Shown in pieces: positions 18,907 through 41,942 of a DNA stretch of 64,000 nt. Origin of the DNA: Chloroflexota bacterium (GTDB taxonomy: Bacteria > Chloroflexota > UBA11872); the NCBI GenBank assembly GCA_022820025.1, contig JAJEGF010000081.1:48608-112607 (forward strand). Direction: 5' to 3'. The stretch's first letter is position 1. Each line of letters starts with the position of its first letter. The position numbers and the translations under genes were made by a program. The notes beneath the pieces are model-generated. The model was given only the letters and a program-made list of their open reading frames with translations. It was not told the origin of the DNA and searched no databases.

Positions 18907-19734
18907 ATGCGCGTTTCCTACACCACCTACTCCGCGCCCGCCTGGCCGCTTGAACGACATCTCGCCGTCGCGGCCGAGTTGGGCTGTGACGGCCTGGAAC
19001 TCCGCAATCTCGACGGCCGGCCCATCGATCCCGCGATGCCCGAAGATCGCCGCGCCGCAATCTTTGACGCCGTCGCGGATGCCGGCCTCGAAATCTGTGT
19101 AGTCGGCAGCAGCTCGCGCTTCGCCTTCCCGTCCGCTGCCGACCGGCGACAGGCCGTGGAGCAAGCTGTGGCCTTCGTCGAACTCGCCGACGCATGGGAC
19201 GCCCCCATCGTCCGGGTCTTTGGCGGCAACTACGATCCCGGTCCCTCCGACGACGAAGTCAACGGCTGGGTGGCCGAGGCCTTGCGCGAAGTCGCCGTTG
19301 CGGCCGACGCCTATGGCATCCGGATTGCCCTCGAGACTCACGACGCCTTCTCGACCGGCCAACGCGCGCGGCGCGTCCTTGACCTTGCCGATCACACCGG
19401 CATCGGCGTCGTCTGGGACTTCGCCCATCCCGTCCGCCACGGCGAGACGGTTGATCAGACCTGGGATCTCATTCACCGCGAGGTCATCCACGCGCACTTC
19501 AAGGACATGAAGCTCACCGGCGGCGGTCGCGACGGTTGGGAATCGGTAGGCCCCGGTGAAGGCGACCTCCCATTGGCCGACATGGTCGGCCGGCTCGTTG
19601 AGGCCCGCTACGCTGGCTACATCTCCACCGAGTGGGAAGGCCGCGATCCCGACGGCGCCGACGACCCCACCGCCATGCTTCGCGCCCACACCGCCTCGAT
19701 TCGCGATCTGATCGCGCGAGCTCGCCCACGCTGA
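18907..19734 (+). CDS. Sugar phosphate isomerase/epimerase (xylose-isomerase-like TIM barrel)
   Basis: ATG at 18907 (MRVSYTTY). The ORF-track upstream extension is low-complexity. Confidence 0.6.
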   Translation: MRVSYTTYSAPAWPLERHLAVAAELGCDGLELRNLDGRPIDPAMPEDRRAAIFDAVADAGLEICVVGSSSRFAFPSAADRRQAVEQAVAFVELADAWDAPIVRVFGGNYDPGPSDDEVNGWVAEALREVAVAADAYGIRIALETHDAFSTGQRARRVLDLADHTGIGVVWDFAHPVRHGETVDQTWDLIHREVIHAHFKDMKLTGGGRDGWESVGPGEGDLPLADMVGRLVEARYAGYISTEWEGRDPDGADDPTAMLRAHTASIRDLIARARPR

Positions 19735-19857
19735 TAGCGCGGCCGTGCCGCCGCTTCGCCCGTATCCGCGTCGCCCGAAACAACCGTTGACTCGCCCGCC
19801 GGCCCCGCCTACGCTTGCCCTCGGAAAGGCGTCGATCGGGACGAGTACGCGCGACGT

Positions 19858-20101
19858 TCCACGCCAGAGAGTCGGGCCTCGTGCTGAAAGCCCGATCGTG
19901 GAAGCAGCGTCGAATGGCCCCGTGAGCCTCAGACCGAACGGCACCGCTCAGTAGGCTCTGACGGAGGCCCTCCGTAATCCGGGCAGGGTATCGAGTTACG
20001 GCTCCGTACCTGTGAGAAGCGCCCACGGCGCTTGAATTAGGGGTGGCACCGCGAAGGCCACGTACCTCTCGCCCCCTTGTGTGGCGAGAGGTTTTTGATT
20101 T
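19858..20101 (+). promoter_or_regulatory. T-box leader (putative Trp-specific) with intrinsic terminator upstream of trpE
   Basis: T-box consensus AATTAGGGTGGCACCGCG at 20035-20053. Terminator hairpin CCTCTCGCC/GGCGAGAGG at 20065-20091 followed by TTTTTGATTT. Upstream AGAGAG and UGGA candidate specifier (UGG=Trp). Strong SD AAAGGAGGGG before trpE. Confidence 0.65.
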
Positions 20102-20125
20102 AAGGCGCCAAAAGGAGGGGCCGAT

Positions 20126-21631
20126 ATGTTGTCCACTGCACCTTCACGCACGGACACATGCGCCTGGACGCTCCGGCAATTGCGGGCCGGGCGTGGCGTC
20201 CCCGTCTTTCGTGACATGCCGGCCGATCTCGACACCCCGGTCGCCGCCTACCTCAAGCTCCGCGGCGACGCCCCCTCATTCCTCCTTGAAAGCGTGGAGC
20301 GCGGCGAGGCCGTCGGCCGCTACTCCTTCGTCGGCGGATCCCCTCGCGCGGTCGTCCGACTTCGCGAAGGCCGGGCCACGGTCGCCAACCGGAGTGGACA
20401 GCCGGCGACCGGCGACTACGAAGACCCGCTGGAGTACATCGAGGGGCTACAGCACCCGTTCCCAATTGCCACGCATCCGGACCTTCCGCCCTTCCAGGGC
20501 GGCGCGGTCGGCTATCTCGGCTACGACGTCGCCGCCAACTTCGAACGGCTGCCCGTGCCCGAGCGGGACACACTCGGCGTTCCTGACGCCGTCTTCATGT
20601 ACTGCGACGACCTCGTCGTGTTCGACCACGTCACGCAGGTCCTGCGGCTCGTGACCCTCGCGCACCCGTCCGACGATGTCGACGCCGCGGTGGCTGCCGC
20701 TGAGGCCCGCCTCGATCACTTGGCCCAACGACTCGACGGTCCCTATGCCACGTCGCCGGCGCTTCCCAGTCCAAACGGTGAAGGCGCTTCCCAGAGCATG
20801 TCGCAGGCCGAATTCGAGGACTGCGTACGCCGAGCCAAGGAATACGTCGCCGCCGGCGACATCATCCAGGTCGTGCCCTCGATCCGGTTTAGCCGCCCGC
20901 TCAACGTCGATTCCTTCCAGGTCTACCGCTACCTGCGGCGCGTCAACCCCTCGCCATACATGTTCTTCCTGGACTGCGGCGATCTGCAGTTGGCCGGCGC
21001 CTCGCCCGAGATGCTGCTGCAGGCCGTCGAGGGACGCGTCCGCACGCGTCCGCTTGCCGGGACTCGGCCCCGTGGCGCAACGCCCCAGGAAGAAGCCGAA
21101 CTCGAGCGCGACCTCCTGGCCGACCCCAAGGAACTCGCCGAGCACGTCATGCTCGTCGATCTCGGACGCAACGATCTCGGTCGCGTCTCCAACCCCGGGA
21201 CGGTCAACGTCGACGACCTCATGTTCGTCGAGCGCTTCTCCCACGTCATGCACATCGTCAGCGATGTGAGTGGCCGGCTCAGTCCGAGCTACGGGGGCGT
21301 CGACGCGCTCCGCGCCTGCTTTCCGGCCGGCACCCTCACCGGCGCGCCCAAGATCCGCGCCATGGAAATCATCGCCGAACTCGAAGACCTGCGACGCGGA
21401 CCCTACGGTGGCGCCGTCGGCTACATCAGTCATTCCGGCGACATGGATACCGCCATCACCATCCGCACACTGCTTGCCCACAGCGGACGTGCCCACGTCC
21501 AGGCCGGCGCCGGGATTGTCGCGGACTCAGTCCCGGCGACCGAGTACCAGGAATGCGTCAACAAGGCTCGCGCGGTGCTGCAGGCCATCGAACTCGCGGA
21601 GGAGGCGGCACGTGCTGCTCGTCTTGGATAA
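20126..21631 (+). CDS. trpE: Anthranilate synthase component I
   Basis: 501 aa with chorismate-binding enzyme blocks. First gene after the T-box leader. Confidence 0.9.
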
Positions 21632-22196
21632 CTACGACTCCTTCACCTACAACCTGGTGCAATACCTTCAGGTCCTGCACGCCGACGTCGCCGTCTACCG
21701 CAACGACGCCGTGACGGTCGACGACATTGACGACATGTCGCCGGACGCCATCGTTGTCTCACCCGGACCCTGTACGCCACACGAGGCCGGGATATCCGTC
21801 GATCTGATTCGAGCCCTCGGCCCAACCGTGCCAACCCTGGGCGTCTGTCTCGGCCACCAGTCCATCGGCGAAGCCTTCGGGGGGCAGGTCGTTCGCGCGC
21901 CGGTCCTCATGCACGGCAAGACCTCGCCGATCGCCCACGACGGACGCCGCCTGTTCGCCGACCTGCCCAATCCGTTCGATGCCACCCGCTACCACTCCCT
22001 GATCGTGCAGCGCGAAGGCCTCCCGGATGAACTGGAGGTCACGGCCCAGAGCCCGGACGGGCTTATCATGGGAATGCAGCACCGTACGCACCCCATATAT
22101 GGCGTGCAGTTCCACCCGGAATCGATCTTGACAGCCGCCGGACCCGCGCTCCTGCGCAACTTCCTCATGCTGGCCGACGTGCCGGTGGCCGCATGA
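21612..22196 (+). CDS. trpG: Anthranilate synthase component II (glutamine amidotransferase)
   Basis: GTG start, [18 protein letters not shown] ... GVCLGHQ class I GATase motifs. Overlaps the trpE stop. Confidence 0.8.
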
Positions 22197-23218
22197 TCCC
22201 CGAGGCCATCCGTTCGGTCGTCGATGGTGATGATCTCGATCGCGGCACCGCCGGCGCCCTCATGGACGCGATTCTCCAAAACGAGATGACGCCCGCCCAG
22301 TTCGGGGCGCTCGTCACCGCCCTGCGTCTCAAGGGTGAAACCGCCGCCGAAATCGCCGGCTTCGCTGCCAGCATGATCCGCCATGCCCGGCGCATCGAAG
22401 TGGACGGTACGGCCCTCGTCGACACCTGCGGCACGGGGGGTGGGGTGACCCGCTGGGTCGGCGTGTCCACCGCCGCGGCCATCGTCGCTGCCGGTGCCGG
22501 CGCTGTCGTCGCCAAGCACGGCAACCGCGGCGTCACCCGGCCGGCCGGCAGCAGCGATGTGCTCGAAGCGCTGGGCGTAAACCTCATGGTCGGGCCCGAC
22601 CTGGTGGCCCAGGCGCTCGACGAAGCCCGCGTGGCGTTCATGTTTGCGCCGGCGTTTCATCCCGCCATGCGCTTTGCCGGTCCGCTCCGTCAGGAAATCG
22701 GCATCCGCACGGTCTTCAATGTCTTGGGGCCTCTCACCAATCCCGCTGGCGCACAGCGACGTCTGCTCGGCGTCGGCGATCCTGCGCTCGCTCCCACCAT
22801 CGCGGAAGCCGTGCGCCTGCTGGATATTGGTCGAGCGCTCGTGGTCCACGGCCACGGCGGGGTCGACGAAGTCTCCCTCACCGGCCCAACCCAGGTGCTC
22901 GATGTCAGGGATGGCATCGTCTCGGAATACGAGGTCAAGCCGGCTGACTTCGGATTGCCCGCCGTGGATCCGGCCGAGCTCGAAACCCACGATGCCCAGA
23001 CCGTAGCTGGCGCCACCCGTGCGCTGTTGGCCGATCAGCACGGTGGTCCTCGCCGCGATGTCGTGCTTGCCAACGCGTCCGCCGCACTCGTGGCGGCCGG
23101 GATCGTTTCGGACTGGCGCGATGGCGTCTCTCGTGCGGCCGACGCCATTGCCAACGGCTCGGCGCTGGCCTGCCTGAACCGTCTCGTTGAAGTCTCGAAC
23201 AGGAGCGACGGAGCCTAG
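22193..23218 (+). CDS. trpD: Anthranilate phosphoribosyltransferase
   Basis: ATGA overlap with trpG. TrpD blocks (GTGGD..., [10 protein letters not shown]). Confidence 0.85.
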
Positions 23219-23221
23219 GAC

Positions 23222-24001
23222 GTGATCCTCGACGAGATTGTCGCCCGTAAGCGCATCGACGTGGCGGCCCGCGTGGAGCGCGCCAATCTGTCCGAGATTC
23301 AGGCGCGACTCGCCCAACGTGGGCCCACGCGCTCGCTGTGGCACGCCCTTGACGAAGACGGCGTCGGCGTTATGGCCGAGATTAAGCGTCGCTCGCCCTC
23401 CGCCGGCGTATTTGCTGAAAACATCGATCCGTCCGCGTGGGCATCTCGCTATGAAGCCGGCGGTGCTGTCGCTATCTCTGTCCTCACCGACGAACCCTTC
23501 TTCGGTGGCTCGCACGCCGACCTGGTAGCGGCGCGTGCGGCAACTGAACTGCCGATCCTGCAGAAGGACTTCGTCATTACCGACTACCAGATCTTCGAGG
23601 CCGCGGCCTTCGGCGCGGACGCCGTCTTGCTCATCACCGGTCTCACGCTCGATCAGAACCTTCAGGCGCAGATTGAACTCGTCCATCGCTTGCAGATGGA
23701 AGCCCTCGTCGAGGTGCACACCGAGGAGGAACTCGACGAAGCCCTCCTCGCGGGCGCCCGCATCATCGGCATCAACAACCGCAACCTCCGCGAGTTCACG
23801 ACCGACCTGGCCGTCACGGAGGAACTGTGCAAGTTGATTCCCGAAGAAATAACCGTTGTCAGCGAAAGCGGCGTCCACGTGGCCCACGACGTGGAGCGGC
23901 TGGCCGCCGCCGGCGTCAGCGGCGTCCTGGTCGGCGAGTCCATCATGACCGCCGAGGATCCGCTGGCTCAACTCCGCATGCTGGTCGAGGCCGGCGAGTA
24001 A
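23222..24001 (+). CDS. trpC: Indole-3-glycerol phosphate synthase
   Basis: GTG start. IGINNRNL and EIKRRSPS motifs. Confidence 0.85.
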   Translation: MILDEIVARKRIDVAARVERANLSEIQARLAQRGPTRSLWHALDEDGVGVMAEIKRRSPSAGVFAENIDPSAWASRYEAGGAVAISVLTDEPFFGGSHADLVAARAATELPILQKDFVITDYQIFEAAAFGADAVLLITGLTLDQNLQAQIELVHRLQMEALVEVHTEEELDEALLAGARIIGINNRNLREFTTDLAVTEELCKLIPEEITVVSESGVHVAHDVERLAAAGVSGVLVGESIMTAEDPLAQLRMLVEAGE

Positions 24002-24008
24002 CCCGCGC

Positions 24009-24626
24009 ATGCTCATCAAGATCTGCGGCCTCCTGGAACCGGCCGATGGCCATGTCGCCGCGGCGGCTGGCGCCGATCTGCTGAGCGTGATCTTCGCGCC
24101 CGCCCGCCGCCGCCGCACGCTCGCCCAGGCCCGCGCAATCTTCGACGCCGCGCCGCCGCACGTGGAGCGCGTCGGCGTCTTTGTCGATGCCCCGCCCGCC
24201 GAAGTCAACGAAGTTATCGACGGCTGCCGCCTCGATCGCGTCCAGTTTTCCGGCGCCGAGACGCCCGACGACTGCCGCGCCTTCGGCGAGCGGGCCATCA
24301 AGACGCTCCGGCTGCCGCGTGACCTCGACAAGCTCCCGCGGTTTCCGGTCCCGCTATTCAACCTGGACGCGGACGTCGAAGGCCACGCAGGCGGAACCGG
24401 CGAGATCTGGGATTACGCGCTCGCACGCGAGACTTCCCACACCTACCGGGTACTCCTTGCCGGCGGCTTGACGCCCGACAACGTCGGAGCCGCCATTGCC
24501 GCCGTCCGGCCATACGGCGTGGACGTCAGTAGCGGCGTTGAGACCGACCGGCGCAAGGACCACGACAAGATCGAACGGTTCATCCGCAACGCGCGAGCCG
24601 CCTACGACACGGCGCTCGCGCCATGA
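24009..24626 (+). CDS. trpF: Phosphoribosylanthranilate isomerase
   Basis: MLIKICGL N-terminus, 205 aa. Confidence 0.8.
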   Translation: MLIKICGLLEPADGHVAAAAGADLLSVIFAPARRRRTLAQARAIFDAAPPHVERVGVFVDAPPAEVNEVIDGCRLDRVQFSGAETPDDCRAFGERAIKTLRLPRDLDKLPRFPVPLFNLDADVEGHAGGTGEIWDYALARETSHTYRVLLAGGLTPDNVGAAIAAVRPYGVDVSSGVETDRRKDHDKIERFIRNARAAYDTALAP

Positions 24627-25603
24627 CCCGCCTTCGCCTCGCCGCCGTGGGCTTCTCCCTGCTTGCGCTGGCCGCCTGCACGCACGGCCTGGAACTCGAG
24701 AACGGGCAACGACCGGTCCAGCCAATCACACGAGTCAGCTTTCTCTTTAACGAAGACCAGAGCGACATCGTTCTGACTGCGCCCACGAGCGTCGACCAAC
24801 AGGCCCCTGCCGCGGTCCCAGGCCCTGCGGTCGTCACGGCCTCTCCGCCGGCCGCAGCGCCGGCGCAGCCCACGGATGCCCCTGCGCCCCCAACTCCCTC
24901 GACCGCCGGGCAGGGCACGACGGCTGACCCGTCGCCAGCCGCCACTGCCGCGACTGGCAGCCCGACGCCAACGGCCGAGCCGACCCCGCTCCCCGACGTC
25001 GACGTCGCGGCCATTACCTCCGACGAGACAGCCAGGTCGCTCGTAATTCCAGCGACGGAAGTTGATCCAGGACTGGAAACCGTCGACGAGTCGTCCGACC
25101 CCACGGACTTCCTGTCCGAGGAACTTATGGCTCAGTCCGCCCTCTCAAGCTTCTACGTCAGTGGTAGCAGCCGCCAGCCCACCGGCGGCGGCCGCCCGGT
25201 CCAGCTTGTCCAGCGCCTGTTCGTTCATGCCAACACCGAGGGCGCGTCCCGGATGTTCGATGAGCTGGTCGACAGCGCCGCCCCAACATTCGCCATCGCC
25301 GCGCTGGGCTTCTTCCGCCAGTTCTATCCTGACCTTGAGCCCGGCACGCGTACATCTGATCAGTTCACGCTGGCGGATCAAAACCGCCTGATTGAAGTTC
25401 GAATCGACCCCAAGATCGCCCCCGAGGAACGCGAACTCGGCCCAGGCGACCCGCACATCTACTACTTGATTCTGCGCCAGGGTCGCGTGTCTGCCATATT
25501 CGAGCTTGTTTACCTGAGTGCCCAGGATCCGGGCGTCGTCACCGTCCTGGGTGAACGCCTGATCAACCGCATTCCGGGCGCGCTCGCCGGATCCCAGCCA
25601 TAG
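24623..25603 (+). CDS. Lipoprotein with Pro/Ala/Thr-rich linker inserted between trpF and trpB
   Basis: Signal peptide plus lipobox (LLALAACT). ATGA overlap with trpF and stop 2 nt before trpB. Low-complexity PAPT linker, then a globular C-terminal domain. Confidence 0.5.
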
Positions 25604-25605
25604 AG

Positions 25606-26808
25606 ATGCTGATTACGCGCGAGCTACCCGACGACGCCGGCTACTACGGCCCGTTCGGCGGCCGTTACGTGCCCGAGACGCTCGTCGCCGCGCTCGACGA
25701 ACTCGAAGCCTCGTTCCAGCGCCATCATCGCGATCCTGCCTTTGTGGACGAACTCGACAATCTGCTTCACTTCTACGCCGGTCGTCCCACCCCCACCTAC
25801 CACGCCACGAGCCTCAGCCAGGAGCTGGGTGGCGCTCAGATTTTCCTGAAGCGGGAAGACCTCGCCCACACCGGCGCCCATAAGATCAACAACGCGCTTG
25901 GGCAGGGCCTGCTCGCCCGCGTCAGCGGCAAGCGACGGGTCATTGCCGAAACCGGTGCTGGCCAGCACGGCGTGGCCTCCGCCACCGTCTGCGCCATGCT
26001 CGGCCTCGACTGCGTGGTCTACATGGGCGAGGAAGACGTCCACCGCCAGGCCCTCAACGTCGCCCGCATGCGCACCCTCGGCGCCGAAGTCATTTGCGTA
26101 ACGTCGGGCACCCGCACCCTTAAGGACGCCATCAACGAAGCCCTGCGCGACTGGGTCACCAACGTCGAAACCACCTTCTACCTCTTCGGCTCCGCCACCG
26201 GCCCGCACCCCTACCCCAAGATCGTCCGCGAATTTCAGCGTGTCATCGGCCGCGAAGCCCGCGCCCAGATCCAGGAACTCTCAGGCGCTCTGCCCGACAC
26301 CGTCGTCGCCTGCGTCAACGGCGGCAGCAACGCCATCGGAATCTTCTCCGCGTTCATCGAAGATCCCGACGTCAAGCTCATCGGCGTCGAAGCCGGCGGC
26401 CGCGGCGGTGACCAGGGCGAGCACGCGGCCACCGTGGAAAGCGGGACCCTCGGCATCCTTCACGGGTCACGCAGCCTGCTCCTGCAAGACGAAGGCGGGC
26501 AGATCATTGGAACGCACAGCATCGCGGCAGGTCTTGACTATCCGGGCGTGGGTCCGGAACTGGCCTACCTGCACCATGTCGGCAGGGCGGAGTTCCACAC
26601 GTTTGGCGATGACGCTGCAATGGATGCCCTTCAGTTGCTGGCTCGAACCGAGGGCATAATCCCCGCCCTCGAGAGCGCGCACGCCGTCGCCGGGGCAATC
26701 CGACTTGCGTCCGAGGCAAGCAGCGATCACGTCATCCTGGTCAATCTCTCCGGACGCGGCGACAAGGACATGGAGACCATCGCCGCCCAACTCGGCGAGC
26801 GCCCATGA
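25606..26808 (+). CDS. trpB: Tryptophan synthase beta chain
   Basis: PLP-lysine block [13 protein letters not shown]. 400 aa. Confidence 0.9.
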
Positions 26809-27593
26809 ACCGTATCGACTCGACCTTCAAGGCGGCCAACGCCGAATCGCGGCTGGTCCTGGCCCCCTACGTCACCGTTGGATATCCGACCCGTGAATCC
26901 GCCGTCGAATTGGCGCTCGCCTACGTTGAGGCCGGTGCCGACATGCTCGAAGTCGGCATGCCGTTCAGCGACCCCATCGCTGATGGCCCCACCGTGCAAT
27001 TGGCCTCGCAGATCGCGCTGGAAGGCGGCGTCTGGCTCGAGGACGCCTTCCAGATGATCGAGCGGATTCGTTCCCAGACCGAAATTCCGCTGGTCCCAAT
27101 GGGCTATGCCAACCCCTTCATGCACTACGGCTTCGGTGCGCTCGCGCGCGAGTTCGCGGCAGCCGGCGCTGATGGATTGATCGTGCCCGACGTTCTGCCC
27201 GAGCACGCCCACGACATCGAGGCCGCGAACGCCGAGCATGCCCTGCACCTCATCCGGTTTGCGGCCCCGACCACGCCGCTGCAGCGACTACGGCAAATCG
27301 GCGAGGGAGCCAGGGGCTTCATCTACTGCGTCAGCGTTACCGGCGTCACCGGCAGCCGCGCCGAACTTTCCGACAGTCTGCCTGCCTACCTGGCGCGCGT
27401 GGGCAAAGCCACAAGAATTCCCCGCGTCGTCGGCTTCGGAATCTCCAAACCCGAACACCTGCGTTCGCTCCACGGCCGCGCCGAGGGCGCCATCGTCGCC
27501 AGCGCCCTCATCGACATCGTGCAAGCCAGCCCGCCCGGCCGGGGCGTCGAAGCCGCCGCGGCCCACGTCCGCCGTCTCGCCGCCGCCGCATGA
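26805..27593 (+). CDS. trpA: Tryptophan synthase alpha chain
   Basis: YVTVGYP ... [14 protein letters not shown] motifs. ATGA overlap with trpB. Confidence 0.9.
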
Positions 27594-28594
27594 CACGCGT
27601 GATTCTCATCAGCCTCGGCCTGGCAGCCGCCGCCTACGTCCTCATCGTCCTGCGCACCGCCTGGCTCATCGTCCACCCCAATCGCCGGTGGCGTCCGCTC
27701 GACTGGGAGCCGCTGCCACTCAATCCGGCGCGCGTTTCATTCAGGTCGGCCGACGGCACCCGCCTCGCCGGCTGGATCAAGCCGCACGATAACCCCATCG
27801 CCACCGTCATCCTCGTCCACGGACTCGCTGTCAATCACACCGTGCTGGCCAATCGTGCCTACCGCCTCTGGCAACGGCGCTTCTCCGTCATGCTCTTCGA
27901 CTTCCGAGCCTGCGGCGAGTCCGAAGGCTCAACCAGCACCTGCGGCGTCCGCGAAGTCGCGGACCTTTCAGCCGCCGTCGATCTATGCCTGCACCAACCG
28001 GAGTTCGGCAACGCGCCCATCGTCGCCTTGGCCGACTCGCTTGGCGGCACCGTCACCCTCGCCGCCGCCGCGCAACGCCCGGAAATCAAGGCCGTGTTCA
28101 GCGACGCCGCCCCTATTTCGCTCCGGTCGGCAATCGACAAGGGATTCTCCGCCTACACCGGTCTCCCGGCGCTCCCGTTCAGGCGAGCCGTCGTCTGGGC
28201 CGCCGAACGCCTCACCCGCGAGAATGTCGACGATTTCTCTGTCGAAGACTCCATCGCCCGCATCGCGCCGCGCGCCATCTGCCTCGCGCACGGCCACCTC
28301 GATCCCCTGGTCGACGTGGCCGACGCACACCGGATGCACCAACGCGCTGGCGAGCCGTGCGAGCTCTGGCTCGAGCCAGCCGTCGGCCACGTCCTCGCCA
28401 GCGAAATCGACCCGGACGAATACGCCGACCGCGTGGCCGCCTTCTTCAAACGCGCGGTTTCGCCTCGGCACGCGCCCTCTCGACCCGAAGATCGGCGCAC
28501 CGCAAGGCAGTCGCTTGACCACTCCGGCGCACTTGGCCCGCAGACCAACGGCACCGACGAAACCGTGTCCGCGCAAACGTCCTCGAAGCCCTAA
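27590..28594 (+). CDS. Alpha/beta-hydrolase-fold protein with N-terminal TM anchor, coupled to trpA
   Basis: ATGA overlap with trpA. VILVHGL ... nucleophile elbow ALADSLGG. Confidence 0.55.
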   Translation: MTRVILISLGLAAAAYVLIVLRTAWLIVHPNRRWRPLDWEPLPLNPARVSFRSADGTRLAGWIKPHDNPIATVILVHGLAVNHTVLANRAYRLWQRRFSVMLFDFRACGESEGSTSTCGVREVADLSAAVDLCLHQPEFGNAPIVALADSLGGTVTLAAAAQRPEIKAVFSDAAPISLRSAIDKGFSAYTGLPALPFRRAVVWAAERLTRENVDDFSVEDSIARIAPRAICLAHGHLDPLVDVADAHRMHQRAGEPCELWLEPAVGHVLASEIDPDEYADRVAAFFKRAVSPRHAPSRPEDRRTARQSLDHSGALGPQTNGTDETVSAQTSSKP

Positions 28595-29196: not shown

Positions 29197-29286
29197 GGAG
29201 GGGTGCCCGAGTGGTTTAAGGGGCTCGTCTCGAAAACGAGTAGGCGTGATGAGCGCCACGTGGGTTCGAATCCCACCCTCTCCGCC
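29197..29286 (+). tRNA. tRNA-Ser (anticodon CGA)
   Basis: Acceptor GGAGGGG/CCTCTCC. Anticodon loop CUCGAAA. Long variable arm. T-loop GGTTCGAATCC. Confidence 0.8.
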
Positions 29287-29326: not shown

Positions 29327-29414
29327 GGAGAGGTCGCCTAGAGGCTTAGGGCGCACGCCTGGAAAGCGTGTAGGGGGCAACCCCACGTGGGTTCGAATCC
29401 CACCCTCTCCGCCA
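29327..29414 (+). tRNA. tRNA-Ser (anticodon GGA)
   Basis: Acceptor GGAGAGG/CCTCTCC plus encoded CCA. Anticodon loop CUGGAAA. Long variable arm. Identical T-arm to the upstream tRNA. Confidence 0.8.
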
Positions 29415-41699: not shown

Positions 41700-41850
41700 T
41701 CCCCGTGGAAACCTTTGCGTAACCCGAGAGGCGAATGCGCGGTTTCAGTCCATTCGCGGAGCCGCCGTTCCTTCCCCTCTCCTGGGGGAGAGGCAGATTC
41801 GGCCGTCTTCGGCCGAAATCGGTGAGGGGTCTTCCGGGCAACCACCTGTC
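41700..41850 (+). repeat. Conserved intergenic element, copy 2
   Basis: See copy 1. Located between the Rieske gene start and the amidohydrolase gene end. Confidence 0.55.
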
Positions 41851-41942
41851 GGGTTTTGCAAAAGCCTCTTCGGGGAGTGAATTGGGATGAGGATCTTCCC
41901 CCGCCACTCCTCGCAGGACACGAAGGCATGCAGGGAGAACAG

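Follow-up and report, generated by a model that had tools for sequence, protein, structure and literature searches.

The window (the whole 64,000-nucleotide stretch of DNA that was analyzed) carries on its forward strand a compact operon, positions 20126 to 28594, that holds the complete tryptophan pathway plus two extra genes. The genes trpE (20126-21631), trpG (21612-22196), trpD (22193-23218), trpC (23222-24001), and trpF (24009-24626) are followed by orfX (24623-25603), which encodes a lipoprotein of no known family, then by trpB (25606-26808), trpA (26805-27593), and a gene for an alpha/beta hydrolase (27590-28594; Hydrolase_4 / Abhydrolase_1). All are identified by Pfam except orfX, which has no Pfam match. 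The most likely start of trpG is the GTG at 21612, behind GGAGGAGG. Every junction between genes is an overlap or a gap of at most 7 nt, and relatives L081-L083 have the same gene order. Searches with TrpE assign the window to an uncultured lineage of the Chloroflexota, with metagenome-assembled genomes at 85-94% TrpE identity.

Of the side observations at this locus, the most unusual is that the operon includes a conserved lipoprotein gene. The start of orfX overlaps the stop of trpF, and its product of 326 amino acids, encoded between trpF and trpB, consists of a signal peptide with the lipobox LALAAC, a variable linker rich in Pro, Ala, and Thr, and a conserved C-terminal domain of about 190 residues. 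It has 44 homologs, and the few that are named are hypothetical proteins of Chloroflexi or Chloroflexota metagenome-assembled genomes. The position of the gene in the trp operon is kept even where OrfX identity is 50%. An AlphaFold model of OrfX has a mean pLDDT of 60.8, with values of 70-90 in the C-terminal domain; its best fold matches in the PDB are the extracellular sensor domain of PknH (4esq, E = 3.8e-4, TM 0.54) and the mycobacterial TiME and MTC28 proteins. The second extra gene, for the alpha/beta hydrolase, is the last of the operon, is translationally coupled to trpA, and is conserved in that place in L081-L083; we know of no role for such a protein in tryptophan synthesis. Just 3' of the operon region, and on the same strand, are two tRNA-Ser genes (29197-29286, anticodon CGA, and 29327-29414, anticodon GGA), a pair that is also conserved in L081-L083.

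The upstream gene, for a xylose-isomerase-like TIM-barrel protein, stops at 19734, which leaves a spacer of 391 nt before trpE. Within this spacer, on the forward strand, a leader RNA at 19823-20079 matches the Rfam T-box family RF00230 over the full length of the model (positions 1-219) with a score of 82.5 bits. The E-value is 1.9e-18 when 501 nt are searched and 2.4e-16 for the whole window, far beyond chance, and this is the sole T-box found within the window by Rfam in E-value mode. The same window searched in gathering mode yields no T-box, only the two tRNA-Ser genes, because the score of the element, present as it is, lies below the gathering cut-off for RF00230 of 93 bits. The first-pass annotation, which had proposed a tRNA-Trp T-box with an intrinsic terminator at this site, named the lack of an RF00230 hit above threshold as grounds for giving the proposal up, and taken literally the score is such a result. 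We do not accept it as a refutation, since a gathering cut-off is a curation threshold and not a limit of significance, and we file the element as a T-box on the strength of its structural features, its full-length match, its E-value, its relatives, its compensatory changes, and the scores above 93 bits of distant leaders. An RF00230 match occurs at the same place before trpE in all nine relatives scanned (L001-L009), at 75-87 bits and so always below 93, and the aligned leader is kept in four further relatives, for 13 orthologous leaders from uncultured Chloroflexota. Four more distant Chloroflexota (Anaerolineales, Ardenticatenaceae, Promineifilum, and Dehalococcoidales) have trpE-associated T-boxes that score 94-107 bits.

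The element begins at 19823, which is 35 nt upstream of the start at 19858 that had been assigned to it; an interval that starts at 19858 loses the K-turn strand together with the specifier loop's 5' side. Immediately upstream is a putative sigma-70-type promoter (19787-19815, forward strand), with a -35 hexamer TTGACT at 19787-19792, a spacer of 17 nt, and a -10 hexamer TACGCT at 19810-19815. Both hexamers are conserved in 10 relatives, and the spacer between them varies. A consensus scan of the leader called no promoter or terminator; the promoter goes uncalled because its -10 hexamer matches the consensus at only three of six bases. From its sequence, this promoter would be expected to start the transcript at about 19822-19823, where the Rfam match begins.

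Stem I spans 19829-19927 by covariance-model alignment and is recovered independently by RNAalifold. Its basal helix contains a K-turn, with the GA motif at 19834-19835 and 19924-19925. The motif AGAGAG (19866-19871), which the first-pass annotation took for the GA motif of Stem I, is instead the distal AG bulge, and the distal loop follows at 19877-19890. AGAGAG and, in the loop, GCUGAAA align to AGAGA and GGUGAAA of the model, which identifies the distal platform motifs at the level of sequence. Between these two ends lies the specifier loop, with ACGAGUA on the 5' side (AGUA at 19844-19847), GAAUGGC on the 3' side (19912-19918), and the S-turn elements AGUA and GAA. By the rule of the TBDB preprint, the specifier comprises bases 2-4 of its loop when counting starts at the 3' end, and UGG at 19915-19917, the codon for tryptophan, occupies exactly this position. 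A Trp specifier had been anticipated, and the covariance-model alignment does present UGG in the loop rather than a codon for another amino acid; the UGGA first pointed to, at 19899-19902, belongs to a helix strand of Stem I (U19899 pairs with A19861, and G19900 with C19860). The stretch GAAUGGCCCC is invariant in 11 aligned leaders and in L081-L083. One feature departs from the class: a conserved purine is expected 3' of a T-box specifier (review), but the window has C19918, and this C does not vary among the 11 aligned leaders or L081-L083 either. Elsewhere in the Chloroflexota the base after UGG is C in the Thermoflexus leader L043 and A or G in others; six more distant trpE T-boxes of the phylum read GAA-UGG-N (-A, -G or -C), with UGGC in the bulge.

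Downstream of Stem I, the covariance-model alignment gives Stem II at 19930-19960 with its S-turn elements (GAAC ... AGUAGG), followed by the Stem IIA/B pseudoknot at 19962-19984. The Stem IIA hairpin (19962-19974) includes an F-box-like CCGUAA, and in the IIB pseudoknot, as proposed by RNAalifold, GCCC (19967-19970) pairs with GGGC (19981-19984). Next comes an extra hairpin at 19986-20011, detected by RNAalifold, which lies outside the Rfam consensus and inside an insertion of 24 nt, and whose base has the motif GGGUAUCG...CCGUACCU. This base motif, in the form GGGYAUCG...CCGURCCU, recurs in the trpE leaders L013, L015, L016, L033, and L078. It is common to leaders from Dehalococcoidales, Dehalococcoidia, and Anaerolineales, in which the apical stem differs in sequence and stays complementary. 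Judged from these sequences, the extra hairpin may be a phylum-typical T-box module in Chloroflexota. Stem III (AAGCGCC / GGCGCUU, 20017-20033, by covariance-model alignment) is flanked by the purine-rich GAGAAG on its 5' side and by AA (20035-20036) on its 3' side.

Stem III leads into the T-box sequence and antiterminator (20035-20076), which are placed by covariance-model alignment and form a block that is invariant in 11 leaders. The T-box consensus block itself, at 20035-20053, is AATTAGGGGTGGCACCGCG. Its presence bears out the first-pass annotation, whose quoted 18-mer AATTAGGGTGGCACCGCG nonetheless has three Gs where the sequence has four; a search for the literal 18-mer finds no match at up to two mismatches because that transcription drops one G. 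The antiterminator is made of helix A1 (GGGG 20040-43 with CCCC 20073-76) and helix A2 (GCGA 20051-54 with UCGC 20069-72), on either side of a 7-nt bulge, UGGCACC (20044-20050). According to a review, all known T-boxes have UGGN at the 5' edge of a 7-nt bulge. [quoted passage not shown]

An intrinsic terminator, composed of a hairpin and a U-tract, occupies 20065-20101, as described from the start, and is identified by fold energy and conservation. Its 9-bp stem pairs CCTCTCGCC (20065-20073) with GGCGAGAGG (20083-20091), contains 7 G-C pairs, and closes a loop of 9 nt; a simple terminator scan missed it because that scan allows loops of at most 8 nt. The stretch directly 3' of the stem, 20092-20101, reads TTTTTGATTT as DNA and supplies the U-tract UUUUUGAUUU. 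The 5' arm of the terminator overlaps the 3' strand of the antiterminator at 20069-20073 (to 20074 in the extended fold), so the two structures are mutually exclusive. The alternative called for by the earlier annotation can thus be folded both ways: the terminator at -18.5 kcal/mol, and the antiterminator at -8.1 kcal/mol with canonical pairs or -13.2 kcal/mol in the extended form. With the terminator the more stable of the two, the arrangement is the expected default-off one, in which bound uncharged tRNA must stabilize the weaker helix; this dependence on uncharged tRNA is expected from established knowledge of T-boxes. When the whole leader is folded to minimum energy, the terminator is present. 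That single-sequence fold misfolds Stem I and is not significantly more stable than those of shuffled sequences (z = -0.8), for which reason the anatomy given here is taken from the covariance-model alignment and the consensus fold. Also as first described, a Shine-Dalgarno (SD) sequence directly precedes trpE: GGAGG at 20114-20118, 7 nt before the ATG at 20126 (20114-20128 in all). It is outside the terminator hairpin and 22 nt beyond it, and trpE starts 25 nt after the U-tract.

Covariation was assessed in an alignment of 11 leader sequences with 46 pairs derived from Rfam. Standard pairs fill 93.5% of cells, compared to 35-47% when the partners are slid by 1-3 columns, and ten pairs have changed on both sides; none of 500 shuffles reaches the observed values. 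In Stem I, helices 1-5 are maintained, and 7 pairs among them have compensatory changes; the window itself has two non-canonical pairs in Stem I. Stem II (helix 6) is paired in all cells and has 2 compensatory pairs, while Stem III (helix 8) is 98.7% paired with one compensatory change. RNAalifold recovers Stems I, II, and III independently and adds the IIB pairing (97.7% paired, one compensatory change) and the extra hairpin (98% paired, 2 compensatory pairs); for the two combined, pairing is 97.9% and compensatory pairs number three. Because neither the antiterminator stem nor the terminator stem varies, no covariation can be drawn from either. Identity to relatives is 87-90% in the T-box core, 77-86% in the first 300 nt of trpE, and 55-63% in the 52 nt upstream of the -35 hexamer; conservation is higher in the leader than in the coding DNA of trpE. 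Even in L081-L083, where OrfX protein identity has fallen to 50-61%, the leader is still about 89-90% identical.

The terminator stem is conserved in 11 of the 13 relatives, with a loop of 3 to 9 nt and, in L010, an insertion of about 120 nt. The exceptions, L008 (2862-2937) and L009 (2907-2991), more distant members of the lineage at 68-70% TrpE identity, keep the T-box core without the terminator 3' arm and U-tract. From its sequence, L008 has apparently exchanged the terminator for a helix that would sequester the SD (GGGAGAGG), a switch to translational control within one clade. L009 lacks a U-tract, and its SD can pair only weakly, over 5 bp (CCUCU/GGAGG). The insertion in L010 (2834-2954) is an element of about 120 nt that sits inside the T-box terminator loop and has inverted-repeat ends (GGAGACCTTTGC...GCAAAGGTCTCC). 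A homologous copy is found in the window at about 41707-41865, the two having the exact 23-mer GGTGAGGGGTCTTCCGGGCAACC in common, and the window copy overlaps a sub-threshold Rfam match to whalefall-1 (41773-41831; 29.5 bits against a threshold of 37, E = 0.0012). The element resembles a small repeat, mobile or structured.

Taken together, the RF00230 match, the covariation, the UGG specifier, and the relatives argue that the spacer before trpE very probably contains one transcriptional T-box riboswitch, typical of its class and with specificity for tRNA-Trp, and that it immediately precedes a compact trp operon, as originally suggested. Transcription would start near 19822 from the TTGACT-17-TACGCT promoter, and folding of the nascent leader would produce Stems I and II, the IIA/B pseudoknot, the lineage-typical extra hairpin, and Stem III. 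Codon-anticodon pairing would join the UGG specifier of the Stem I loop to CCA in tRNA-Trp. An uncharged tRNA-Trp would also pair through its 3' end GCCA with UGGC of the bulge and so stabilize the antiterminator (20040-20076), and RNA polymerase would continue into trpEGDCF-orfX-trpBA-hydrolase. With a charged tRNA, the terminator (20065-20091 plus the U-tract), which is the more stable structure, would form instead and stop transcription 25-30 nt before trpE. Gene packing makes it plausible that the T-box controls the whole nine-gene operon in this way, presumably through one regulated transcript. A consensus scan across 9.7 kb found no promoter-like sites and two weak terminator-like sites, against 5.2 expected from shuffles; at the G+C content of this genome, such a scan may overlook an internal promoter within the operon.

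Four other explanations for the leader were weighed. In a translational T-box, an established class according to a review, an alternative helix hides the ribosome-binding site, as in the actinobacterial ileS T-boxes. The 70%-identical relative L008 resembles this arrangement, with CCUCUC and its partner GGGAGAGG 4-5 nt before a GTG start and no U-tract. In the window, however, the terminator 3' arm is directly followed by the U-tract and the SD stands free of the hairpin. The hairpin plus U-tract arrangement is kept in 11 of 13 relatives and apparent SD sequestration is seen in L008 only, which leaves a translational switch very unlikely here. That the element might be a decayed, non-functional T-box remnant, or that its terminator might merely end the upstream gene, would explain a score below 93 bits in the window and in nine of nine relatives scanned with Rfam, and the two non-canonical pairs in Stem I would fit as well. 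Against this, the leader is more conserved than neighboring coding DNA and far more so than the spacer 5' of the promoter, its helices are maintained by compensatory changes, every named T-box motif is present, and a conserved putative promoter lies between the upstream gene and the T-box. We consider this account highly improbable. Leader-peptide attenuation and TRAP-like control are both established for trp operons of other bacteria, and either a leader peptide or a TRAP-like RNA-binding protein could in principle act through a terminator/antiterminator pair such as the one present. Yet short open reading frames of the leader contain a single Trp codon only and have no SD, so that no tandem-Trp leader peptide is seen, the leader lacks a TRAP-like array of (G/U)AG triplets with 2-3 nt between them, and the T-box match already explains the structure. 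The chance that either replaces tRNA sensing here seems close to negligible.

The identity of the tRNA depends on the reading frame of the specifier. GAAUGGC holds AUG, UGG, and GGC, so that a shift by one base would give Met (AUG, -1) or Gly (GGC, +1), and UGG is followed by a pyrimidine where a purine is usual; according to the TBDB authors, more than a single frame is possible in many T-boxes. A bulge that reads UGGC, on the other hand, needs a G discriminator, which is the base reported for tRNA-Trp in the TBDB preprint, where Trp T-boxes carry C or U at the matching bulge base; C20047 of the window fits. UGG was chosen among the three because the covariance-model alignment, the position rule, C20047, and the downstream genes, which are trpEGDCFBA, all agree. 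In bacteria, the discriminator base is U73 in tRNA-Gly and A73 in elongator tRNA-Met. Other Chloroflexota trpE T-boxes with UGGA or UGGG lose the GGC reading, which removes it for most of them. A frame that recruits a different tRNA is therefore extremely improbable. Neither the window nor any of the 83 loci contains a tRNA-Trp gene, so the anticodon and discriminator of the host tRNA-Trp are assumed here.

Its probable specificity for tRNA-Trp puts the element in known company. A Trp T-box at the head of a trp operon is a textbook example in TBDB, Chloroflexi are among the T-box-bearing groups of Sun et al. 2013, and Wels et al. 2008 (PMC2494555) reported T-boxes related to trpE and to a trpB-like gene in two Dehalococcoides genomes (CBDB1 and 195). 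The window shares with those the phylum, the regulated gene trpE, and the RNA family. With the Dehalococcoidales-type leaders L013 and L016 it also shares GAA-UGG, a UGGC or UGGU bulge, and the hairpin base GGGUAUCG...CCGUACCU. It differs from these relatives in belonging to another, uncultured lineage, with TrpE only about 50-53% identical, in having C rather than A after the codon, in scoring below 93 bits where L013 scores above, and in the two extra genes of its operon. Measured against the canonical tyrS / glyQS type of Bacillus subtilis, the leader has the same K-turn, S-turn specifier loop, AG bulge, distal loop, Stem II, IIA/B, Stem III, 7-nt bulge with UGGN at its 5' edge, and competing terminator with U-tract, but it is G+C-rich, inserts a hairpin of 26 nt between IIA/B and Stem III, and has a pyrimidine 3' of the specifier. 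Tandem T-boxes have been reported before trpE in some bacilli, whereas the window has one. The actinobacterial ileS translational T-boxes follow the same sensing logic; what sets the window apart is a U-tract terminator, an SD left free, and a Stem I that is long and bears distal platform motifs.

The regulatory principle is not new, T-box control of Chloroflexi trpE having been published in 2008. The main value is one of annotation: a functional-looking Trp T-box is missed at default Rfam thresholds, as are those of the nine relatives scanned. Such misses imply that riboswitch censuses of Chloroflexota metagenome-assembled genomes that use gathering scores may under-count T-boxes. The locus also offers modest leads, namely the conserved extra hairpin, the C tolerated at a purine position, and the apparent switch from terminator to sequestrator in L008. 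A bolder proposal, which we rate as unlikely, is that Chloroflexota trp T-boxes form a distinct subclass, marked by the extra hairpin and in this lineage by a pyrimidine under the codon-anticodon helix, which together would lower the score below 93 bits, and that the switch co-regulates OrfX, a lineage-restricted lipoprotein with a PknH-like extracytoplasmic sensor fold, and the hydrolase in a possible role in the acquisition of tryptophan or indole. Apart from any such role, the T-box flags orfX, an uncharacterized lipoprotein gene, as part of a putative tryptophan-starvation regulon.
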